Shown here: one piece after another, positions 32,454 through 43,156 of the stretch
Layout: each line of letters opens with the position of its first letter
How positions within the stretch are numbered: the first letter of the stretch is position 1
Assembly (NCBI GenBank): GCA_965200835.1
Contig: OZ241390.1
Span: forward strand, 450,518 to 514,517
Direction: 5' to 3'
Length of the DNA: 64,000 nt
DNA from: Acidimicrobiia bacterium
GTDB lineage: Bacteria; Actinomycetota; Acidimicrobiia; Spongiisociales; Spongiisociaceae
Notes under the pieces: generated by a model
The model's database searches: none
Told to the model about the DNA's origin: nothing
The model's input: only the letters and a program-made list of their open reading frames with translations
Translations under genes and position numbers: made by a program

Positions 32454-35400
32454 TCAACCTTCTTCCCTGCGCTCGGGGCGCGACAGATCAATGCCCAGTG
32501 ATTCTGCAGTCCGGTAGAGATCTTCGTCCAGGTCTCTGAACTGGATCTCCTCACCCGCCGATAGCAGCTCTACGTTGAGACACAGACTTTGCATCTCTTT
32601 GATGAGAACTTTGAAGGAGGCCGGCACTCCCGGCGGCGGGATGTTGTCGCCTTTTACGATCGACTCGTACACCTTTACCCGGCCCAGCACATCGTCGGAC
32701 TTGATGGTCAGCAGCTCCTGGAGTGCGTAGGCGGCGCCGTATGCCTCCAACGCCCAAACCTCCATCTCCCCAAAACGCTGGCCGCCGAATTGAGCCTTTC
32801 CTCCCAGCGGCTGCTGGGTGATCATGGAATAGGGTCCGGTGGAACGGGCATGAAGCTTGTCGTCGACCAGGTGCACCAGTTTGAGTATGTAGAGATAGCC
32901 GACGGTTATCGCCTGATCGAACGGCAGACCGGTACGGCCGTCGTACAAGGTGGCCTTGCCATCTTCGTCGATCAGACGGTCGCCGTCCCGGTTCGAGCGG
33001 CTGTAGCGCAGGACCTTCGCGATCTCCTCCTCACGCGCGCCGTCGAAGACCGGGGTGGCCACCCGCGACCAGGGCGGCATCCCGCCGGCGGCCGGACCGC
33101 CTCCTCGGAAGGACCGCCAGCCATGAGCAGCCGCCCAGCCGAGATGGGTCTCGAGAACCTGCCCGAGGTTCATACGAGAGGGGACCCCCAGCGGGGACAG
33201 GACGATGTCGACCGGGGTGCCGTCCGCCAGGAACGGCATGTCCTCCTCGGGAAGGATCTTGGCGATCACCCCCTTGTTGCCATGGCGACCGGCCAGCTTG
33301 TCCCCTTCCGAGATCTTGCGCTGGCTGGCTACATACACCCTGACCAGGTCGTTCACACCGGGGGGAAGATCGTCGAATCCTTCGTCACGCCGGAACACTT
33401 TCACATCGATTACCTTGCCGGCCTCCCCGTGGGGAACCTTAAGGGAGGAGTCCCGAACCTCCCGGGCCTTCTCACCGAAGATGGCCCTCAGCAGGCGCTC
33501 CTCCGGGGTCATCTCGGTTTCACCCTTGGGGGTGACCTTCCCGACCAGATAGTCGCCCGGACCCACATCGGCCCCTACCCGAATGATTCCCTCGTCATCC
33601 AGGTCCTTGAGGACCTCCTCGGCCACGTTGGGAATGTCGCGGGTTATCTCCTCGGCGCCCAGCTTGGTGTCCCGCGCATCGATCTCGTACTCCTCGATGT
33701 GGATCGAGGTCAGCACGTCCTCCTTGACCAAGCGCTGGCTGAGCACGATGGCGTCCTCGAAGTTGTGACCCTTCCAGGGCATGAAGGCGGCCAGCAGGTT
33801 CTTTCCGAGGGCCAGCTCGCCCCCATCGGTGGAGGGACCATCGGCGATCACGGTTCCCTCCTGCACCTGTTGACCCACCGAGACCACCGGCTTCTGGTTG
33901 ATGGACGTACCCTGGTTGGAGCGTTCGAACTTCCGGAGAGGGAAGCGGTGGGCATCGCCGTTCCCGGACCCGGCCACCACTATCTCGTCCCCGGTCACCG
34001 AGATGACTTCGCCCGCCACGTCGGAGATGATCAGATCTCCGGAGTCCTGGGCCGCTCTGGCCTCCACTCCGGTGCCGACCAGAGGAGCGTCCGTTTGCAG
34101 GAGTGGGACGGCCTGGCGCTGCATGTTGGAGCCCATCAGGGCCCGGTTGGCGTCATCGTGCTCCAGGAACGGTATGAGAGAGGTAGCCACCGAGACGATC
34201 TGCTTGGGAGACACGTCCATGAAGTCGACATCCCCCGGCGGCACTCGGTCGTTGACCCCGCCGTCCCTTCGCACCGAGATCCGATCCTCCTCCAAGAGTC
34301 CATCCTCCCCCAGGCGAGCGTTGGCCTGCGCGATGACGTATCTCTCCTCGTCCGATGCGGTCAAGTACTTGATCTCCTCGGTCACCCGGCCGCTCTCGAC
34401 CTTCCGATAAGGGGTCTCGATGAAACCGAACTTGTTGACCCGGGCGTAGCTGGCCAATGAACCGATCAACCCGATGTTGGGACCCTCAGGGGTCTCTATC
34501 GGACACATCCTCCCGTAATGCGAGGTATGAACATCCCGCACCTCGAACCCGGCCCGCTCCCTGGAGACGCCGCCGGGACCCAGGGCGGACAGCCGGCGGC
34601 GGTGCGTCAGCCCGGCCAGCGGGTTGGGCTGGTCCATGAACTGGCTGAGCTGGCTGGAGCCGAAGAACTCTTTGATCGATCCCACCACGGGCCGGATATT
34701 GATGAGGCTCTGGGGAGTGATCGAATCGGGATCCTGGGTGGTCATCCGCTCCCGGACCTGGCGCTCCATCCGGCTGAGACCCACCCGTATCTGGTTCTGT
34801 ACCAGCTCCCCGACAGTCCGCACCCGCCGGTTACCGAAGTGGTCCGTGTCATCGGTCTGCACCGGTATCGGATTGCCCAAGGCGGTGGTCATCACCGGCT
34901 TGCGCTCGTGCAGATGGACCATGTAGCGGATCGTGTCGACCAGGTCATCGGCGCTGAGGAGGCCGTTGCCCTCCCCATGCCCATCGGGGTGCCGGAACTT
35001 CTGGTTGACCTTGTAACGGCCGACGTGGGTGAGGTCGTAACGCCTCGCGTTTCTGAAGACAGAGTCGATGAGTCCCCGAGCCGACTCCGCCGTGGTTGGT
35101 TCGCCCGGCCGTTGCTTCCGGTAGAAATCGAGCAGGGCCTCGTCGGGGTCCTTTACCGGGTCACGTTCCAGCGTGGTACGGATGACCTTGGATCCGTCGA
35201 ACATCTCGATGATCTGTTCATCGGAGTCCGCGATACCGAGGGCCCGGATGAAGGCGGTTATGTACTGGCGTCGTTTGCGGTCGACCTTGACACCCAGCGT
35301 GTCACGCTTGTCGATATCGAATTGCAGCCAGGCGCCCTGACCGGGAATTATCTTGGCACCGTACAGATCCCTGTGGGACGTCTTGTCGATGGAATGGTCG

Positions 35401-35858
35401 AAGTAGACACCCGGCGAGCGCACCAGCTGGCTCACCACCACGCGCTCGGTTCCGTTGATGATGAACGTCCCGTTGCGGGTCATCATGGGAAAGTCACCTA
35501 GGAACACCCGCTGCTCCTTTATCTCACCCGTACCTCGGTTCACGAAGCGGGCGATTACGTGGAGCGGTTGGGAGTAGCTCGTATCGCGTTCCTTGGCCTC
35601 CTCGACGGTCATCAGCGGATCACCGAAGTAGTGTTTGCTGAGATCCAGAGCGAGGGACCCCGAGAAGTCTTCAATCGGAGAAACCCGCTTGAAGATCCGA
35701 CTCAACCCCTGCTCCAGGAACCACGAGAAGGATTCCTTCTGAACCGAAATCAAGTCGGGTAGCGTAAGAACTTCGGGAATCTTGGAGAACGACAAGCGTT
35801 CCGCGGCTTGAGCTATGGCCAAAGTTTCCTCCTCGAGACTTGCGACCGGACTCCACAC
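32454..35858 (-). CDS. rpoB: DNA-directed RNA polymerase subunit beta
   Basis: 1134 aa with canonical beta-subunit blocks. GTG start at 35856-35858. Confidence 0.97.
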
Positions 35859-37512: not shown

Positions 37513-38229
37513 TCATCGTCGCTGGGCTATCAGGCGGTCGATCCGCGCCACCTCGACCTTGACGCCGGGTCCCATGGTGGATGAGACCGAGAGGTTCTTC
37601 AGGTAGGTTCCCTTAGCGGCAGCCGGCTTCACCCGGATGATCTCTCCCACCAGCGCGGCCAGGTTCTCGGTCAGGCGGTCAGCTGTGAACGAAGCCTTGC
37701 CGATGGGAGCTGCGATGTTGCCGTACCGGTCGTTGCGGTACTCGATCTTCCCACCCTTGAACTCCCGAACGGTGGTCGCCACATCCCTGGTTATCGTGCC
37801 CGCTTTGGGGTTGGGCATTAGACCGCGCGGCCCGAGCAACCTCCCCAGACGACCCACCCTCGGCATCATGTCAGGAGTGGCTATCGCCACGTCGAAATTG
37901 ATCTCACCACCCCCGGCCAGCCGATCGACCAGGTCCTGGCCTCCGACCACCTCGGCCCCGGCCCGCTCGGCCTCCAGCTGCTGGTCACCCCCTGTGAACA
38001 CCGCCACCCGCACGCTCTTTCCGGTTCCGTGCGGGAGCTGAACCGTTCCCCGGACCAGCTGGTCGGCTCGGCGGGGATCGATACCGAGCTTCATCACCGC
38101 CTCGACCGTCTCGTCGAAGCGGGCTGATGCCATCTGTTTGACCAGCTTGACCGCCTCGGAAGGGGAATGGCTCTCGTACTTGTCGAACGTAGCGGCCATC
38201 TGGTTGTACCGCTTGCCCCTTCGGGCCAT
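37513..38229 (-). CDS. rplA: 50S ribosomal protein L1
   Basis: L1 family sequence. Start at MARRGKRY (ATG 38227-38229). Confidence 0.92.
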
Positions 38230-38313
38230 GGTTCCTCCTTGTGGTACTTGCGAGCCGCTCTCGGGCGGCTCTCCCAACTGTGTTCTCGACTGGGATTGGT
38301 CCCCAGCCGGTGG

Positions 38314-38745
38314 CTATCGATCAGCTATTACTATCCCCATCGACCTGGCCGTGCCTGCCACGATCTTCATCGCCCCTTCGATGTCGTTGGTGTTGAGATC
38401 CGGGAGCTTGGTAGTGGCTATCCGGCGAAGCTGATCTGTGGAAAGGGTGGCGACTTTCTCGCGGTTGGGCTCCGCAGATCCCTTTTCGATGCGGGCGGCC
38501 TGCCGGAGTAGGACGGCGGCCGGGGGTGTCTTGGTCACGAACGTGAAGGACCGGTCGCCGTAGATCGTCACTTCCGCGGGAACGATGGTTCCCAGCTGGG
38601 CCTTGGTCGCCTCGTTGTAAGACCTGACGAACTCCATGATGTTGATGCCGTATTGGCCCAGGGCGGGCCCCACCGGGGGCGCCGGGCTGGCCTCCCCAGC
38701 CGGAATCTGGAGCTTCAGAATTGCTGTGACCCGTTTTCTACCCAT
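38314..38745 (-). CDS. rplK: 50S ribosomal protein L11
   Basis: L11 N-terminal domain with the PPVGPALGQ motif. 143 aa. Confidence 0.93.
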
Positions 38746-38809
38746 GATGGCCGTTGTCCTCTGTACTAGATCTTTCCATATTGGCTAACCGGCCGGCATA
38801 CCTTGCCGG

Positions 38810-40735
38810 TCACTGCTTCTGGATGTCCTCGAAGCCGAGCTCCATAGGGGTGTCCCGGCCGAAGATCTCCACCAGCACGGTGACCTTCTGCTGATCCACA
38901 TTGATGTCCTCGACCACTCCGTTGAAGTCCGCGAAAGGTCCCGAAGCCACCCGGACAGTCTCGCCTATCTCCCAGGCCGGCTTGAAGCGGGGAGCCTTCT
39001 TGGCGGCTTCCTTCCTGAGACCCAGGAAGCGCTCGACCTCTCGCCTGGACAGGGGGGTGGGCCGGACACCACTCCCCATACCGACGAAGGCAGTTACCCC
39101 GGGAGTGTCACGCACGGCCCGCCACGAGTCGTCGTCGAGATACATGCGGATAAGGAGATAACCGGGGAACATCCGCTTATCCACTTCTTTCTTACGCCCC
39201 TGACGTATCTCGACCACCTTCTCGGTCGGGATGACCACCTCGAAGACACGATCCTGCATGTGCAGCGACTCGGTGCGCTTGGAGAGGTTGGCCTTGACCT
39301 TCTTCTCGTGACCCGAATAGGCATGGATCACATACCACGAACCCGGCTTCTCGTAGGGGCTGACCGGTTCCTCTTCCTCGATAAGCACATCTGCTGGGTC
39401 GGGAACGGGCGCCTCGGTACGGCGGGAAGCCGCCTGCCTGGCCGGCTCGGCGGCACGAGAGACGGCAGGCTCAGGTTCGGCCGCTGCCGGGGCAGCGGAT
39501 GCTGGCTCGGGCCGGACTTCCGGCAGCGATCCATCCGCCCCGAATCCCGCCGAGAGCAGGGCTGCCCCCAACGAACCGAAAGAATCCCCCTCACCCGCTG
39601 GAGCTCCCGAAGCGATACCTGACTCCCGGCCAGCCGGCCCATCCTGTTCCGGCGGAGCGGATGTCGTGCCCTCCTCGAATGCGGAGTCCCCGACCTCTGC
39701 CCCAGTTTCGGTATCGGCACCTGGGGACCCGAAGACCTCCTCGGACACCGACTCGGTAACCGGCGGCTCAGCAACAGCTCCATCACCATCCCGCATCAGC
39801 TTGTAGAGCTCCCGGAGCAAGGAGTCCCGATGCTCCCTGACCCGCTTCTTCTGTACAATGGCACCGAATGCCCCCAGAATCCGCTCGATGGTGTCGAGGG
39901 TGCGCTGAGCGTCATAGAAGGAAATGGTGCGGTAGGAATGGAGAAAGGTGGAGTAGGCCTCCTCTACCCAGCCTCTTACGTGACGTCCGTGCTTCAGTGA
40001 CCAGACGTCATCCCACGTCGCAATGACACCTCCCAGCAGGAACGCGATGCCGTCGGTCGGGATCGAGTCGGAAGGATTGTCCACCCGCTGGTTGACCGTG
40101 TCGCGCCAGCTCTTGCCATATTGTTTGGACCATCTCCTCCGGCATCGAAGGGCCAGACCCTGCTTCAGCTCCTCCCAGCAAGCCTCGATGACTTCCGGAT
40201 CGCGGATCGAAGCCTCCCCACCCACGGATGCCGACGTGGTCGCGATAGCGGGTTTGGTGACTGCTCCCGGTGAGCCGTTCCCGCGGGTGGCTTCCTTCCC
40301 GATCAGCTTCTTGAAGCGCTGCCGCCTCAGGGCCTCCCGGTGACGTTCCACCTTCTGCAGCGCAGCAACGGCGTCGAGGGAGCGGAGCAGCCGCTCGATC
40401 GTTTCGGTAGCTCTGTCGGCGTCATCGAGACTGAAGTTCTCGAATCTGGCAACCCGGCCCCGGAACTGATCGATCTCCCACACCCAGCGCAACTCGTCAG
40501 TACCGAGCCCGGGCACCGCGCTCCATATCTCATCCCAGGTGGCGATCATGCCCTTGAGCAGGAAGGCCGGGTCGTCGGTCGATGGTTCGGAGAAGGGTCG
40601 CTCGAGCTGGCCGTTGACGGTAACTCGCCATTGCGGACCGTAGCGGTCGGACCAATGACGCCTCCCGATGGGCACGATGGCTTCCCGCAAGACAGCCAGG
40701 CCGTCGTCCACCCGAGCGCGGTTGGCTATCGCCAT
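38810..40735 (-). CDS. nusG: transcription termination/antitermination factor NusG with a ~466-aa N-terminal extension (two ~135-aa tandem repeats of an unrecognised domain plus an acidic Pro/Ala-rich linker)
   Basis: The C-terminal 175 aa (38813-39337) are a canonical NusG NGN + KOW (WYVIHAYSGHEKKV...KAPRFKPAWEIGETVRV...). The ORF continues stop-free upstream to 64 nt below the secE stop. Upstream aa 10-140 and 180-312 are clear paralogous repeats. Confidence 0.8.
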   Translation of the reverse strand: MAIANRARVDDGLAVLREAIVPIGRRHWSDRYGPQWRVTVNGQLERPFSEPSTDDPAFLLKGMIATWDEIWSAVPGLGTDELRWVWEIDQFRGRVARFENFSLDDADRATETIERLLRSLDAVAALQKVERHREALRRQRFKKLIGKEATRGNGSPGAVTKPAIATTSASVGGEASIRDPEVIEACWEELKQGLALRCRRRWSKQYGKSWRDTVNQRVDNPSDSIPTDGIAFLLGGVIATWDDVWSLKHGRHVRGWVEEAYSTFLHSYRTISFYDAQRTLDTIERILGAFGAIVQKKRVREHRDSLLRELYKLMRDGDGAVAEPPVTESVSEEVFGSPGADTETGAEVGDSAFEEGTTSAPPEQDGPAGRESGIASGAPAGEGDSFGSLGAALLSAGFGADGSLPEVRPEPASAAPAAAEPEPAVSRAAEPARQAASRRTEAPVPDPADVLIEEEEPVSPYEKPGSWYVIHAYSGHEKKVKANLSKRTESLHMQDRVFEVVIPTEKVVEIRQGRKKEVDKRMFPGYLLIRMYLDDDSWRAVRDTPGVTAFVGMGSGVRPTPLSRREVERFLGLRKEAAKKAPRFKPAWEIGETVRVASGPFADFNGVVEDINVDQQKVTVLVEIFGRDTPMELGFEDIQKQ

Positions 40736-40799
40736 TGGCCGGTCTTCCTCCGCAGCGAGCGGGCCACCATCGACTCTGGCAACAGGAATGCGCTCATCA

Positions 40800-41117
40800 T
40801 CAACCGATGAGGGCTCGGATCAGGGTCAGCACCGTCCGGCTGAAGGCCAGATCCACCAACACTATGTAGCCCGTCAGGATGCCCGCCGTGACGACGGTCA
40901 CCGTGGTGAAGGCGATCATCTGCTGGCGGGTGGGCCATGCGACCCTCTTGAGTTCGGTCCTTACCTCACGGAGGAACTGGACCAGTCGAGCCCAACGGCT
41001 CAGTTGCTCCTTTCCGCGGCCTCCCGTTCCAGCAATGGGCGAACGGCGGCCCCGGTTTCCCTTCTGCTTGCTGCGCCGCTCCTCGCGATCGGCGAGCCGG
41101 CGCATCTCGCGGTTCAT
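40800..41117 (-). CDS. secE: preprotein translocase subunit SecE
   Basis: Basic N-terminus, a single C-terminal TM helix (LREVRTELKRVAWPTRQQMIAFTTVTVV...), and its position between tRNA-Trp and nusG. Confidence 0.8.
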   Translation of the reverse strand: MNREMRRLADREERRSKQKGNRGRRSPIAGTGGRGKEQLSRWARLVQFLREVRTELKRVAWPTRQQMIAFTTVTVVTAGILTGYIVLVDLAFSRTVLTLIRALIG

Positions 41118-41173
41118 CGTATGTGTTCCTGTCCTGTATGAGTTCTACCGGCGGATCTAGCCCCGGATGAGCC

Positions 41174-41250
41174 TGGCAGGGGCGGAGGGACTCGAACCCT
41201 CAACCTCCGGTTTTGGAGACCGGCGCTCTGCCAATTCGAGCTACACCCCT
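41174..41250 (-). tRNA. tRNA-Trp (anticodon CCA), CCA 3' end encoded
   Basis: Cloverleaf by eye: acceptor AGGGGTG/CGCCCCT, D-arm GCTC..GAGC, anticodon loop CUCCAAA, T-arm GAGGG-TTCGAGT-CCCTC, discriminator G, CCA. Confidence 0.9.
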
Positions 41251-41305
41251 CGGCCGTGGGCAAGAGTATAAGAAGTGGCGGGGCCCAGTGTAAACCGGAG
41301 GCTGG

Positions 41306-41704
41306 TCAACCGGACTGCAATCGGAGCCGGCGACCCACCAACACCAGACCGATGGCAGCCACGGTAGCCACCGAAGCCACTGCCGCGGCCGCGACCGGAA
41401 CCCGCCGGGAGGCGGGAGTCTCGACGGGCCGATCAGACAGGATGCCGGTCGGATGGTCCAAAACGGGGGTCATATCGTACGGCAGCGGCTCATGCTCCTC
41501 CCGCAGGGACCGGAGACCGCTCATGATCTGACGCTGCCGGACGGTGGCTACCTGGCAGAGGAGACAGGCCTGGCGGTGACTCTCGAGCGCCAGGGGAAGT
41601 CCGTGAGCTCCGGACTCGACGTCGTACAGGATGGACCTGGTCATCCAGCAGGCGGCGCCTCGTGGCAGGCGGTCGAACATGTTGCGGGCCATTGTCGGGC
41701 TCAC
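41306..41704 (-). CDS. zinc-binding (ZAS-type) anti-sigma factor, membrane-anchored
   Basis: H-x3-C-x2-C motif (HRQACLLC) in the N-terminal domain and a C-terminal TM helix (VAAAAVASVATVAAIGLVLV). Overlaps the upstream ECF sigma gene by 4 nt. Confidence 0.6.
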   Translation of the reverse strand: MSPTMARNMFDRLPRGAACWMTRSILYDVESGAHGLPLALESHRQACLLCQVATVRQRQIMSGLRSLREEHEPLPYDMTPVLDHPTGILSDRPVETPASRRVPVAAAAVASVATVAAIGLVLVGRRLRLQSG

Positions 41705-42264
41705 ACCGCCTCCCGGAGCATCTCACGCAACCGTAGGTGGGCGCGGTGGAGGCGTACCTTGGAAGCGGTCACGGAAATGGACATGGACTCGGCGATCTCC
41801 CGGTGTGACCAGCCGTAGATGTCCTTGAGTACCACCACCGCCCGCTGGTTACGGGGAAGGCGCTGCAGCGCCCTCTTCAGAATGGCCCTCAGTTCCGTCC
41901 GCTCTCCCGCCGCCTCGGGATCCCCGCTGCTGTCAGCGCGGGGCTGGTGGATCATCTGGTCGAGGTCGTAGGTGGACTGGCGGGCTGCGCGGCCCTTGAG
42001 GGTCCAAGCCACGTTGGCGGTGATCCGGTAAAGCCAGGTACTGAAGCTGGCGTCTCCCCGGAACCGGTCGATTGCCCTCCAAGCGCGCACCAGGGCCTCC
42101 TGGGTGACATCCGCCGCCAGGGTTCGATCCCCCGTCAAGCGAACCGCCAATGTGTATACCTCGTGTTGATGTAAACGGACCAGCTCCCCGAAGGCGGACT
42201 GATCACCTCGGCGCGATCGCTCCACCAGCTCGCTGATATCGGTTTCGACCCGCTCCCCCGGCAT
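41701..42264 (-). CDS. ECF (group IV) sigma-70 family RNA polymerase sigma factor
   Basis: Region 2 (LVRLHQHEVYTLAVRLTGDRTLAADVTQEALVRAW) and region 4 (VVLKDIYGWSHREIAESMSISVTASKVRLHRA). Start at MPGERVE (ATG 42262-42264). Confidence 0.85.
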   Translation of the reverse strand: MPGERVETDISELVERSRRGDQSAFGELVRLHQHEVYTLAVRLTGDRTLAADVTQEALVRAWRAIDRFRGDASFSTWLYRITANVAWTLKGRAARQSTYDLDQMIHQPRADSSGDPEAAGERTELRAILKRALQRLPRNQRAVVVLKDIYGWSHREIAESMSISVTASKVRLHRAHLRLREMLREAV

Positions 42265-42268
42265 CAGG

Positions 42269-43156
42269 TTACCGGCTCTCACTTGCCCGGCGGGTTCGCG
42301 CCTCGATGGAAGCCACCACGTGGCTGCCCGCATCGGAGATCACCGACGCTCGGACGGTCGCCCGGCGTTCGGTCCGGCTCTTGACGGTGGTCTCCACCCG
42401 GGCGGCTAGAGCAGGATGTAGAGGGTGCCGGAACCGGAATCGTCCCTTTACCAGAGGATCGGGCCGGTCGATCGTGGCGGTGACCGGCTGCATCGCCCAG
42501 GCTGCCATCAACAAACCGTGACAGATGACCCCGCCGACTCCGGAGTCCACCGCCCGGCCATGATCCCAATGGACCGGGTTGAAGTCCTCGGATGCGGCAG
42601 CGTAACGGACGAGATCCGACCGGGATGCCGACTTGGCCAGGGCGGGAAGGGCTATCCCGGGAACCGGTAGCTCACAGGCAGCCGGAGAAGCGTTCTGCCG
42701 GCGAGCATCAGGCTGAGGTTCCTCCCGCTCGCTGAACCCGCCTCCCGGCGGTTGGCTGTCGGACATCAGGAACAACGACCGGGAAGAGAGAACACTTCGA
42801 TCGTGGTCATCCTTCACTTCCACGCCGAAGGTGACGAAGGAAGTGGCGCCACGCTGTCGCAGGCGAGTGATCCGGCCCTCGACGGACAGGTGGGACCCAA
42901 TCCGCCAGGGTGCCTTCCAGGAGAATGCCTGCTCGCCGTGAATCATCAGGCGAATATGCGCGGCCATGTCGGGATCGGCGAAGAAGGCAGGCGCCACCTT
43001 GAACAGCACCGCGGCCGCGAACGAAGGTGGCGCACAGTTACTCCACCGATGGGGATCGTCGCCCGTGGCTGCTACGTAGGCCGCTACTTGGGCTTCGCTG
43101 ACCCGAAAGGTTACCGGTCCGTAGGAACGACCAGCTAGTTGCTCGAGGTCGCTCAC
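42269..43156 (-). CDS. double-hotdog (two MaoC-like domains) dehydratase, HadAB-like (3R)-hydroxyacyl-ACP dehydratase candidate
   Basis: 295 aa with two hotdog halves. It sits between rpmG and tRNA-Trp/secE, where hadA/hadB sit in mycobacteria. GTG start. Confidence 0.65.
   Translation of the reverse strand: MSDLEQLAGRSYGPVTFRVSEAQVAAYVAATGDDPHRWSNCAPPSFAAAVLFKVAPAFFADPDMAAHIRLMIHGEQAFSWKAPWRIGSHLSVEGRITRLRQRGATSFVTFGVEVKDDHDRSVLSSRSLFLMSDSQPPGGGFSEREEPQPDARRQNASPAACELPVPGIALPALAKSASRSDLVRYAAASEDFNPVHWDHGRAVDSGVGGVICHGLLMAAWAMQPVTATIDRPDPLVKGRFRFRHPLHPALAARVETTVKSRTERRATVRASVISDAGSHVVASIEARTRRASESR

Follow-up and report, generated by a model that had tools for sequence, protein, structure and literature searches.

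A duplicated Swt1-like HEPN cassette on the housekeeping NusG of an Acidimicrobiia bacterium

Introduction

NusG/Spt5 is, to our knowledge, the only transcription factor that all domains of life share, and the architecture of its housekeeping copy is as a rule rigid. In a 64,000-nucleotide stretch of DNA from an uncultured Acidimicrobiia bacterium (assembly GCA_965200835.1, contig OZ241390.1, positions 450,518 to 514,517; hereafter the window), the nusG gene of the secE-nusG-rplK-rplA cluster encodes a protein of 641 amino acids (aa), of which canonical NusG makes up only the last ~180. The locus therefore raises the question of what the rest of this protein is, whether it belongs to NusG at all, and what it might do on an elongation factor. 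Here, we report that the extension is almost certainly a tandem pair (dyad) of Swt1-like HEPN domains placed on the housekeeping NusG. HEPN domains form a ribonuclease superfamily whose active members bear an Rx4-6H motif. The comparisons below suggest that the pair is carried by an exchangeable cassette under selection, and that neither copy in the window is likely to be a working nuclease.

Results

In the window, the fused nusG gene starts at an ATG that lies 64 nt past the stop codon of secE and is followed by rplK and rplA (Table 1). The genes for tRNA-Trp, SecE, NusG, L11 and L1 are all on the minus strand, and the same order is found in every orthologous locus. An earlier sequence-only reading of the window had noted the 641-codon frame 64 nt below secE, and the list of open reading frames (ORFs) reproduces it; for the 466 stop-free codons, the local base composition (stop frequency 0.027 per codon) gives a chance probability of 2.7e-6, which we count as reproducing the earlier estimate of about 1e-5. 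That reading had also confined the NGN-KOW core to the C-terminal part of the protein, and this is where the Pfam NGN and KOW matches fall, along with a match to the NCBIfam NusG equivalog TIGR00922 over aa 467-640 (197.3 bits, cut-off 135.7). A specialised NusG paralogue was rejected, as the models for LoaP (83, cut-off 125), RfaH (69, cut-off 144.5) and UpxY (60, cut-off 100) all score under their cut-offs and the gene occupies, within the 64-kb window, the canonical secE-rplK position. Taken together, the equivalog score, the low scores of the paralogue models and the canonical locus show that the extension sits on the housekeeping NusG.

Upstream of this core, two repeats (aa 16-144 and aa ~190-314) share 36% identity over 131 aa (tblastn E = 2e-20), and both copies carry RRxWSxxYGxxWRxTVN, AFLLxGxIATWDxxW, TIERxL and a basic tail, so that the tandem paralogous repeats and the motifs quoted for them in the sequence-only reading are confirmed. 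That reading could not assign the repeat to a known family; the profile search places it in the Swt1-like HEPN family PF18731 (gathering score 27.5), where the whole protein scores 59.1 bits and aa 1-320 alone 62.4 bits, in two stretches. The orthologues described below reach 75-85 bits on the same profile. In an alignment with 20 outgroup HEPN domains, the N-terminus of HEPN1 (MAIANR...) lines up with the N-terminal ends of HEPN proteins of the free-standing and HmaC types, and it is kept among the fused orthologues as MA(I/T)xNRERV. The AlphaFold2 model of aa 1-319, made from an input alignment of 7 sequences, consists of two helical domains with a disordered loop between them (mean predicted local distance difference test score, pLDDT, 81.7; predicted template modelling score, pTM, 0.76), and a pTM of 0.76 for two domains on a floppy loop suggests a confident packing of HEPN1 against HEPN2. 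A sequence search of the PDB with the HEPN profile gave a chance match only (E = 0.63), and Foldseek with the two-domain model against the PDB gave nothing below E = 0.8. We regard the identity of the module and its architecture, a HEPN dyad on a housekeeping NusG, as nearly certain.

It could still be that there is no functional fusion here, and that the long frame is an assembly or annotation artefact, that the two parts are made as separate proteins (by internal initiation or through a split gene), or that the extension is a neutral passenger in the course of being lost. A full-length search of public collections found an identical 641-aa protein (P0002) on a 2.8-Mb contig and five further fusions of 639-668 aa that are 53-60% identical, each with HEPN_Swt1, NusG and KOW; the full-length query was required, as a word-indexed search with aa 1-320 gave one relative only. 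The fused orthologues stem from independent assemblies, short-read ones included, and the gene order on their contigs is tuf-rpmG-MaoC-ECF sigma-antisigma-secE-[HEPN2-NusG]-rplK-rplA-rplJ-rplL-rpoB, which answers the question, put forward with the sequence-only reading, of whether related nusG genes carry the same extension. An assembly artefact is ruled out by seven lineages and two sequencing technologies.

Separate proteins would be favored by a seventh locus (L001; such numbers are our labels for the compared loci), in which a 320-aa HEPN gene is followed after 4 nt by a 340-aa NusG gene. The split comes from one extra A in the A-run cagaagaaaacggg (L001:6910-6925; 'aagaaaacggg') on a long-read contig labelled 3.26x; the homology goes on in the +1 frame across this run, and dropping one A gives a fused ORF of 662 aa. 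An indel error is the likeliest explanation of this split, and a natural split variant could be another. This single A is the only frameshift or stop found between the module and nusG, the kind of change that had been named beforehand as speaking against a fusion; linker lengths vary in every lineage, and the frame is nevertheless kept in 7 independent lineages or assemblies. In the orthologue alignment there is no conserved in-frame Met between M1 and M522, and no promoter-like or terminator-like site was found inside the fused gene.

The ratio of nonsynonymous to synonymous substitutions (dN/dS; Nei-Gojobori, seven genes) is 0.28 for HEPN1, 0.33 for HEPN2, 0.08 for the NusG core and 0.5-0.85 for the linkers. 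The GC content of the repeat region is 62.6% (HEPN1 64.4%, HEPN2 59.5%), similar to that of the window (63.5%), the NusG core (60.8%), rplK (61.6%) and tuf (60.0%), and GC at third codon positions (GC3) is 0.80 in HEPN1, 0.76 in HEPN2 and 0.80 in the core. The lower GC of the repeat region reported by the sequence-only reading (~53-60%) was thus not borne out, and a recent foreign acquisition argued from GC fails, because GC and GC3 match the core. The cassette is missing altogether from several close relatives, as would be expected of a passenger being lost; a dN/dS of about 0.3 and native GC3 speak against neutrality. On balance, we consider it very improbable that the fusion has no function. 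The kept frame, the purifying selection, the conserved N-terminus and the lack of a conserved internal Met indicate, at the level of sequence, that the extension is coding, under selection and joined to NusG.

Where did the HEPN domains come from? When 1.84 billion cluster representatives were searched exhaustively with phmmer, only NusG fusions scored high; the next matches, at E = 1e-23 and weaker, have 32-40% identity and a single N-terminal HEPN domain, and many of them carry a DUF499 AAA+ ATPase (Pfam). One of these relatives (P0020) matches HmaC of the Hma defence system in PADLOC with E = 1e-292. The nearest relatives of the NusG HEPN domains are thus the Ava_2192-type branch, HEPN fused to AAA+/DUF499, which was called 'active' by Anantharaman et al. 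2013 (PMC3710099). The window protein is itself no member of Hma/HmaC, in which a HEPN-DUF499 AAA+ ATPase is part of a helicase/methylase operon, as it has no ATPase domain and its neighbours are ribosomal and transcription genes; PADLOC gave no match to its aa 1-320. In a neighbour-joining tree, NusG-HEPN1, NusG-HEPN2 and a HEPN domain found on RpoB in one lineage (see below) form one clade against the outgroups in 100/100 bootstraps (HEPN2 100, HEPN1 plus RpoB 92), and this clade is nested among defence-type HEPN domains. The monophyly of HEPN1 and HEPN2 excludes two independent captures and argues for one capture followed by tandem duplication. The source was a HEPN RNase domain like those with which the HmaC/DUF499 defence ATPases begin.

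The fusion has a narrow and uneven distribution. No HEPN domain was found within 4 kb of nusG in the 80 nearest nusG loci of GTDB species genomes, which are from Acidimicrobiia metagenome-assembled genomes, the closest labelled Candidatus Spongiisociaceae with 79-86% core identity. Scanning with the HEPN alignment gave 9 pattern matches in GTDB species genomes and 155 in JGI metagenome contigs, and none of them was confirmed, so all known copies of the fusion come from ENA, Logan and NCBI assemblies. The lineage-specific acquisition proposed in the sequence-only reading therefore stands as regards the narrow lineage, and the acquisition itself is supported by the HEPN-less nearest loci and the nested HEPN clade; the argument from GC does not stand.

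In a tree of NusG core, L11 and L1, lineages with and without HEPN are interleaved. L082, which has the HEPN domains, and L002, which does not, share 96% identity in NusG core/L11/L1 and 90-94% in the flanking DNA, and 1333 bp in L082 (4856-6188) stand against 59 bp at the same place in L002. This comparison delimits a cassette of ~1.3 kb that spans from the end of secE to just before the linker motif SxGSLGAALLSAGFGxDGS. Between L001 and L087 the cassette is 81-93% identical whereas the flanks are only 74-83% identical, and between L001 and L086 the flanks are 79-91% identical whereas the cassette is only 44-69% identical; the proportion of synonymous differences (pS) between L087 and L001 is 0.23 in the HEPN region vs 0.52 in the core. 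Taken together, these results indicate that the cassette is as old as the clade and has repeatedly been lost and/or exchanged by recombination, and that the module, being present or absent among near-identical relatives, is not a fixed trait of the lineage and has a mosaic history. Such repeated loss or exchange means that the cassette is dispensable, and it behaves like a conflict-type accessory allele.

The boundary mapped in L082 and L002 assigns the start of the acidic linker (aa ~316-382) to the variable cassette. The linker as a whole (aa 316-455) carries a net charge of about -21, divided over three sections as -13, -3 and -5, and AlphaFold2 gives it a pLDDT <50 bar one short helix, in keeping with the acidic low-complexity linker of the sequence-only reading. 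The sole conserved element in it is SxGSLGAALLSAGFGxDGS(L)PE, with G387, L389, G390, L394-F398 and D401-S403 as invariant positions. According to tblastn and alignment, sister lineages L002-L010 have this motif in their HEPN-less NusG as well, so that it predates the cassette; a role as a short linear binding motif is possible.

We then compared the catalytic positions by aligning the domains with 20 outgroup Swt1-like HEPN domains, all of which (20/20) have RNxWAH. HEPN1 keeps R...H in five of the seven lineages (RNRVAH twice, RHRVAH, RDLVAH and RSRLEH), and in the remaining two His is replaced by Arg, giving RNRVYR in L085 and RGRVAR (aa 92-97) in the window. In HEPN2, both the R and the H of Rx4H are lost in 7/7 lineages, the window having STFLHSYRT at nt 39926-39952. 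The R-x4-6-H motif of active HEPN RNases is therefore missing from both copies of the window protein, which, by the family's own standard, is predicted to be a pseudo-nuclease. An unrelated protein of 537 aa (P0011) has its own Swt1-like HEPN dyad, in which copy 1 is dead (STHTASA) and copy 2 intact (RTRNAWAH); after the dyad come a long linker rich in Ser and Thr and a C-terminal domain without family assignment. The pairing of a dead with an intact HEPN thus recurs in the Swt1-like HEPN family.

The intact HEPN1 motif of five orthologues supports a different view, in which the fusion is an active RNase tethered to RNA polymerase and acting on nascent transcripts, either in defence/abortive infection or in the surveillance of untranslated or foreign RNA, and in which the copy in the window has decayed. 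HEPN2 is dead in all orthologues, which leaves an intramolecular site with half of its catalytic residues, and a composite site would form by pairing of HEPN1 between two NusG molecules or with another HEPN. The nearest relatives, the HEPN domains of the Hma defence ATPases, all have an intact RNxWAH and belong to the branch described as active; the presence or absence of the cassette between close relatives and its allele exchange are typical of conflict genes, and P0011 shows the same one-dead/one-intact state. However, the His is replaced by Arg in the window and in L085, yet purifying selection and all clade-invariant residues are kept there; the N and W of RNxWAH are altered too in most orthologues; and permanent attachment of an RNase to an essential elongation factor would demand tight control, of which there is no sign. 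We therefore consider an active RNase unlikely.

A HEPN domain is also found on a second component of the transcription machinery. In L084 (P0005 lineage), rpoB (L084:10353-11920) encodes a protein of 1423 aa vs about 1122-1134 aa elsewhere; the RpoB in the window (32454..35858) is of normal length with 1134 aa. The first ~140 aa of the L084 RpoB are, in frame, a paralogue of the NusG HEPN1 with 46% identity to HEPN1 of the window; they score 31.4 bits on PF18731 (27.5 required), have the dead motif SGRVTR, and are followed by a disordered linker of ~170 aa. This fusion rests on one contig, and the sister contig of L084 (L088) ends before rpoB. No further HEPN-RpoB fusions were found in a search that was weak, because ordinary RpoB swamped the matches and the query protein itself was not returned. 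The RpoB fusion points to the elongation complex as the site at which the HEPN domains act.

The dead HEPN on RpoB also bears on the possibility that the dyad is a protein-protein or decoy module, which would bind the RpoB-borne HEPN, HEPN toxins, another partner or a NusG-targeting phage factor, and would thereby add to the anchoring of NusG on RNA polymerase, or neutralise or sense a HEPN RNase or phage protein, with no binding of RNA. This would fit the fact that HEPN domains act as dimers (PMC3710099), the presence/absence polymorphism, the defence ancestry and the strongly conserved, clade-specific surface-type motifs PSTDDPAFLL and EKHGxxVRxWV. In contrast, RpoB has its usual length in the other six lineages, the dimer interface would be occupied if HEPN1 and HEPN2 already pair as the pTM suggests, and none of the genes linked to the locus is a candidate partner. 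Such a module seems somewhat less probable still than an active RNase.

The insertion has left a trace between secE and nusG. In HEPN-less relatives, the nusG ATG overlaps or adjoins the secE stop codon. In 8/8 loci with HEPN, the same ancestral nusG ATG opens a short, poorly conserved ORF of 23-52 codons, here called the relay ORF, and in seven of the eight (L001, L082 and L084-L088; 40-52 codons) the stop codon of this ORF overlaps the new nusG ATG as TGATG; the window differs slightly at this end (Table 1). The cassette lies between secE and the old nusG start. The secE-nusG spacers are 64, 124, 142, 154 and 160 nt long, all 1 mod 3, and shuffling gives a probability of about 6e-3 for this spacer frame remaining open in six lineages. 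A Shine-Dalgarno-like GGAGGA/GGGGG lies 10-15 nt upstream of the ATG of the fused nusG. These features suggest that the relay ORF may preserve the translational coupling of secE to nusG by termination-reinitiation.

Table 1. Positions, in window numbering, of the fused nusG gene, its parts and its neighbours
Feature	Position	Strand	Details
Whole fused gene, HEPN1-HEPN2-acidic linker-NGN-KOW	38810..40735	-	641 aa; ORF list, Pfam domains
HEPN1, Swt1-like HEPN	40301..40735	-	aa 1-145; PF18731 match aa 13-120; AlphaFold2 pLDDT about 85-92
Degenerate HEPN1 motif R92-G-R-V-A-R97 (family R-N-x-W-A-H; His -> Arg)	40445..40462	-	alignment
Inter-domain linker, variable, predicted disordered	40196..40300	-	aa 146-180; pLDDT <50 at aa 152-178; ratio of nonsynonymous to synonymous differences (pN/pS) 0.88
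HEPN2, paralogous Swt1-like HEPN	39791..40195	-	aa 181-315; second PF18731 stretch
Acidic Gly/Pro/Ala/Glu-rich disordered linker	39371..39790	-	aa 316-455; pLDDT <50
Conserved linker motif SFGSLGAALLSAGFGADGSLPE, predicted short helix (aa 388-395)	39518..39583	-	aa 385-406
NGN domain	39026..39340	-	aa 466-570; PF02357, 103 bits
KOW motif	38876..38965	-	aa 591-620; PF00467, 27.5 bits, cut-off 22.3
Relay ORF, 24 codons, MMSAFLLPESMVARSLRRKTGQWR	40726..40800	-	starts in TGATGATG overlap with the secE stop; ends at TAG 7 nt inside the fused gene
secE, upstream operon gene	40800..41117	-	PF00584
tRNA-Trp, upstream of secE	41174..41250	-	
rplK (L11), downstream gene; fixes the locus as the canonical secE-nusG-rplK-rplA cluster	38314..38745	-	ORF list, synteny in orthologous loci

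Within 38200-41400, the sole sigma-70-like promoter match is TTTACA-18-TATACT at 41265..41294 (-), just upstream of tRNA-Trp, which fits the transcription of tRNA-Trp, secE and nusG as one unit; the search for terminator-like sites in this region gave none. Further upstream, an extracytoplasmic function (ECF)-type sigma factor gene (41701..42333, minus strand) is overlapped by a small downstream ORF (41306..41704), probably an anti-sigma factor. Both are placed between a MaoC-type dehydratase gene (42269..43156) and tRNA-Trp/secE, an arrangement that is kept in all relatives with HEPN.

Discussion

The identity of the extension is thus close to settled, and its mode of action can be proposed with much less confidence. 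HEPN domains act as dimers, and the dead HEPN dyad of eukaryotic Swt1 has been proposed as an RNA sensor (PMC3710099); the actinobacterial NGN domain binds the RNA polymerase clamp beside the non-template DNA (PMC9963633). By analogy, HEPN1 and HEPN2 may pack as an intramolecular pseudo-dimer, which the ~140-residue acidic tether would leash to the NGN domain on the RNA polymerase clamp, so that it would stay within reach of the nascent transcript or of other parts of the elongation complex. There the dyad would serve as a module that binds or senses RNA or a nucleotide ligand with no cutting, and it would add a layer of co-transcriptional RNA handling outside the core function of NusG. The presence/absence polymorphism, the exchange of alleles and the defence ancestry suggest that this layer is tied to conflict with foreign elements. 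We hold this non-catalytic, polymerase-tethered mode of action to be a tentative proposal that falls short of an even chance, although it ranks above each of the alternatives weighed here; identity, architecture and mode of action taken as one explanation have about an even chance of being right.

Several points weigh against this proposal. The pairing of HEPN1 with HEPN2, presumably through the canonical dimer interface, was judged from the pTM, and the structural model was built on an alignment of 7 sequences only. With no more than a mildly basic charge, and an acidic one in some orthologues, the domains do not bear a strong signature of RNA binding. The intact R...H of most HEPN1 copies means that catalysis may be the ancestral function and, in some lineages, the current one, and the repeated absence of the module from close relatives marks it as dispensable.

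A bolder reading joins these observations. On this view the cassette would be a mobile immune module whose alleles are exchanged, and RNA polymerase would carry with it a HEPN sensor/effector that checks each transcript as it is made; where HEPN1 is intact, phage or mobile-element RNA would be cleaved co-transcriptionally, and the dead copies (in the window and on RpoB) would be regulators, decoys or sensors. We think this improbable, slightly more so than a decoy module and less so than the lack of any functional fusion. If it were true, it would amount to transcription-coupled innate immunity built into NusG and RpoB themselves, and if some alleles are active RNases, they would represent a new kind of transcription-coupled defence.

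Whatever its activity, the locus suggests that a core gene can host a selected, exchangeable cassette of anti-phage origin, with close relatives as natural plus, minus and allelic variants. In parallel to the Swt1 dyad, a domain from a nuclease superfamily has here, in a bacterium, probably become a non-catalytic module on the elongation complex, and the second, independent fusion, that on RpoB, suggests a partner within or at this complex. The relay ORF illustrates how the translational coupling of an operon can survive the insertion of a domain.

In the literature searched, no paper combines HEPN with NusG in a relevant way, and the HEPN survey PMC3710099 is not among the papers that mention both; the sequence-only judgement that such a NusG fusion is unusual is upheld. 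Among actinobacteria, NusG proteins with an N-terminal extension are known, for example in Mycobacterium tuberculosis (PMC9963633), and they share with the window an NGN+KOW core in secE-nusG-rplK-rplA and a non-conserved extension. These known extensions are short and unstructured (PMC9963633), whereas in the window ~315 aa of folded HEPN, in two copies, precede the ancestral extension; the NusG of the HEPN-less sister lineages is ~280-380 aa long and has a disordered acidic extension. Eukaryotic Swt1 (PMC3710099) resembles the window protein in having PF18731 and a tandem HEPN dyad that lacks Rx4H, on a protein that acts on new transcripts. Swt1, whose dyad is C-terminal, differs in its active PIN nuclease and its place at the nuclear pore, whereas the dyad described here has NusG as its partner and no PIN or nuclease domain, and was duplicated independently in a bacterial clade.

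HmaC/Ava_2192-type ATPases begin, like the window protein, with a HEPN domain, which shares the opening M-x-x-x-N-x-E-R and has 32-40% identity; they carry a single HEPN with intact RNxWAH together with an ATPase in defence operons, in contrast to two dead copies in a ribosomal/transcription operon. RfaH, LoaP, UpxY, ActX and TaA are likewise NusG-family proteins with a diversified function. They are, however, extra plain NGN-KOW copies in or near their target operons, whereas in the window it is the housekeeping copy that has diversified, by domain accretion. In Cas13, with two HEPN domains in one chain, and in the homodimers of Csm6, RNase L and HEPN-MNT, two facing HEPN domains form the working unit, as is expected here. 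The Cas13/Csm6-type enzymes need both Rx4H motifs, while HEPN-NusG has at most one and the window protein none, with no guide RNA and no CARF/sensor domain. The component families are already known, and automated Pfam annotation tags them. What is new, as far as the literature searched shows, is the combination, in which a duplicated, mostly dead, variably present and exchanged HEPN cassette sits on a housekeeping NusG, together with a relay ORF and a sister fusion on RpoB.

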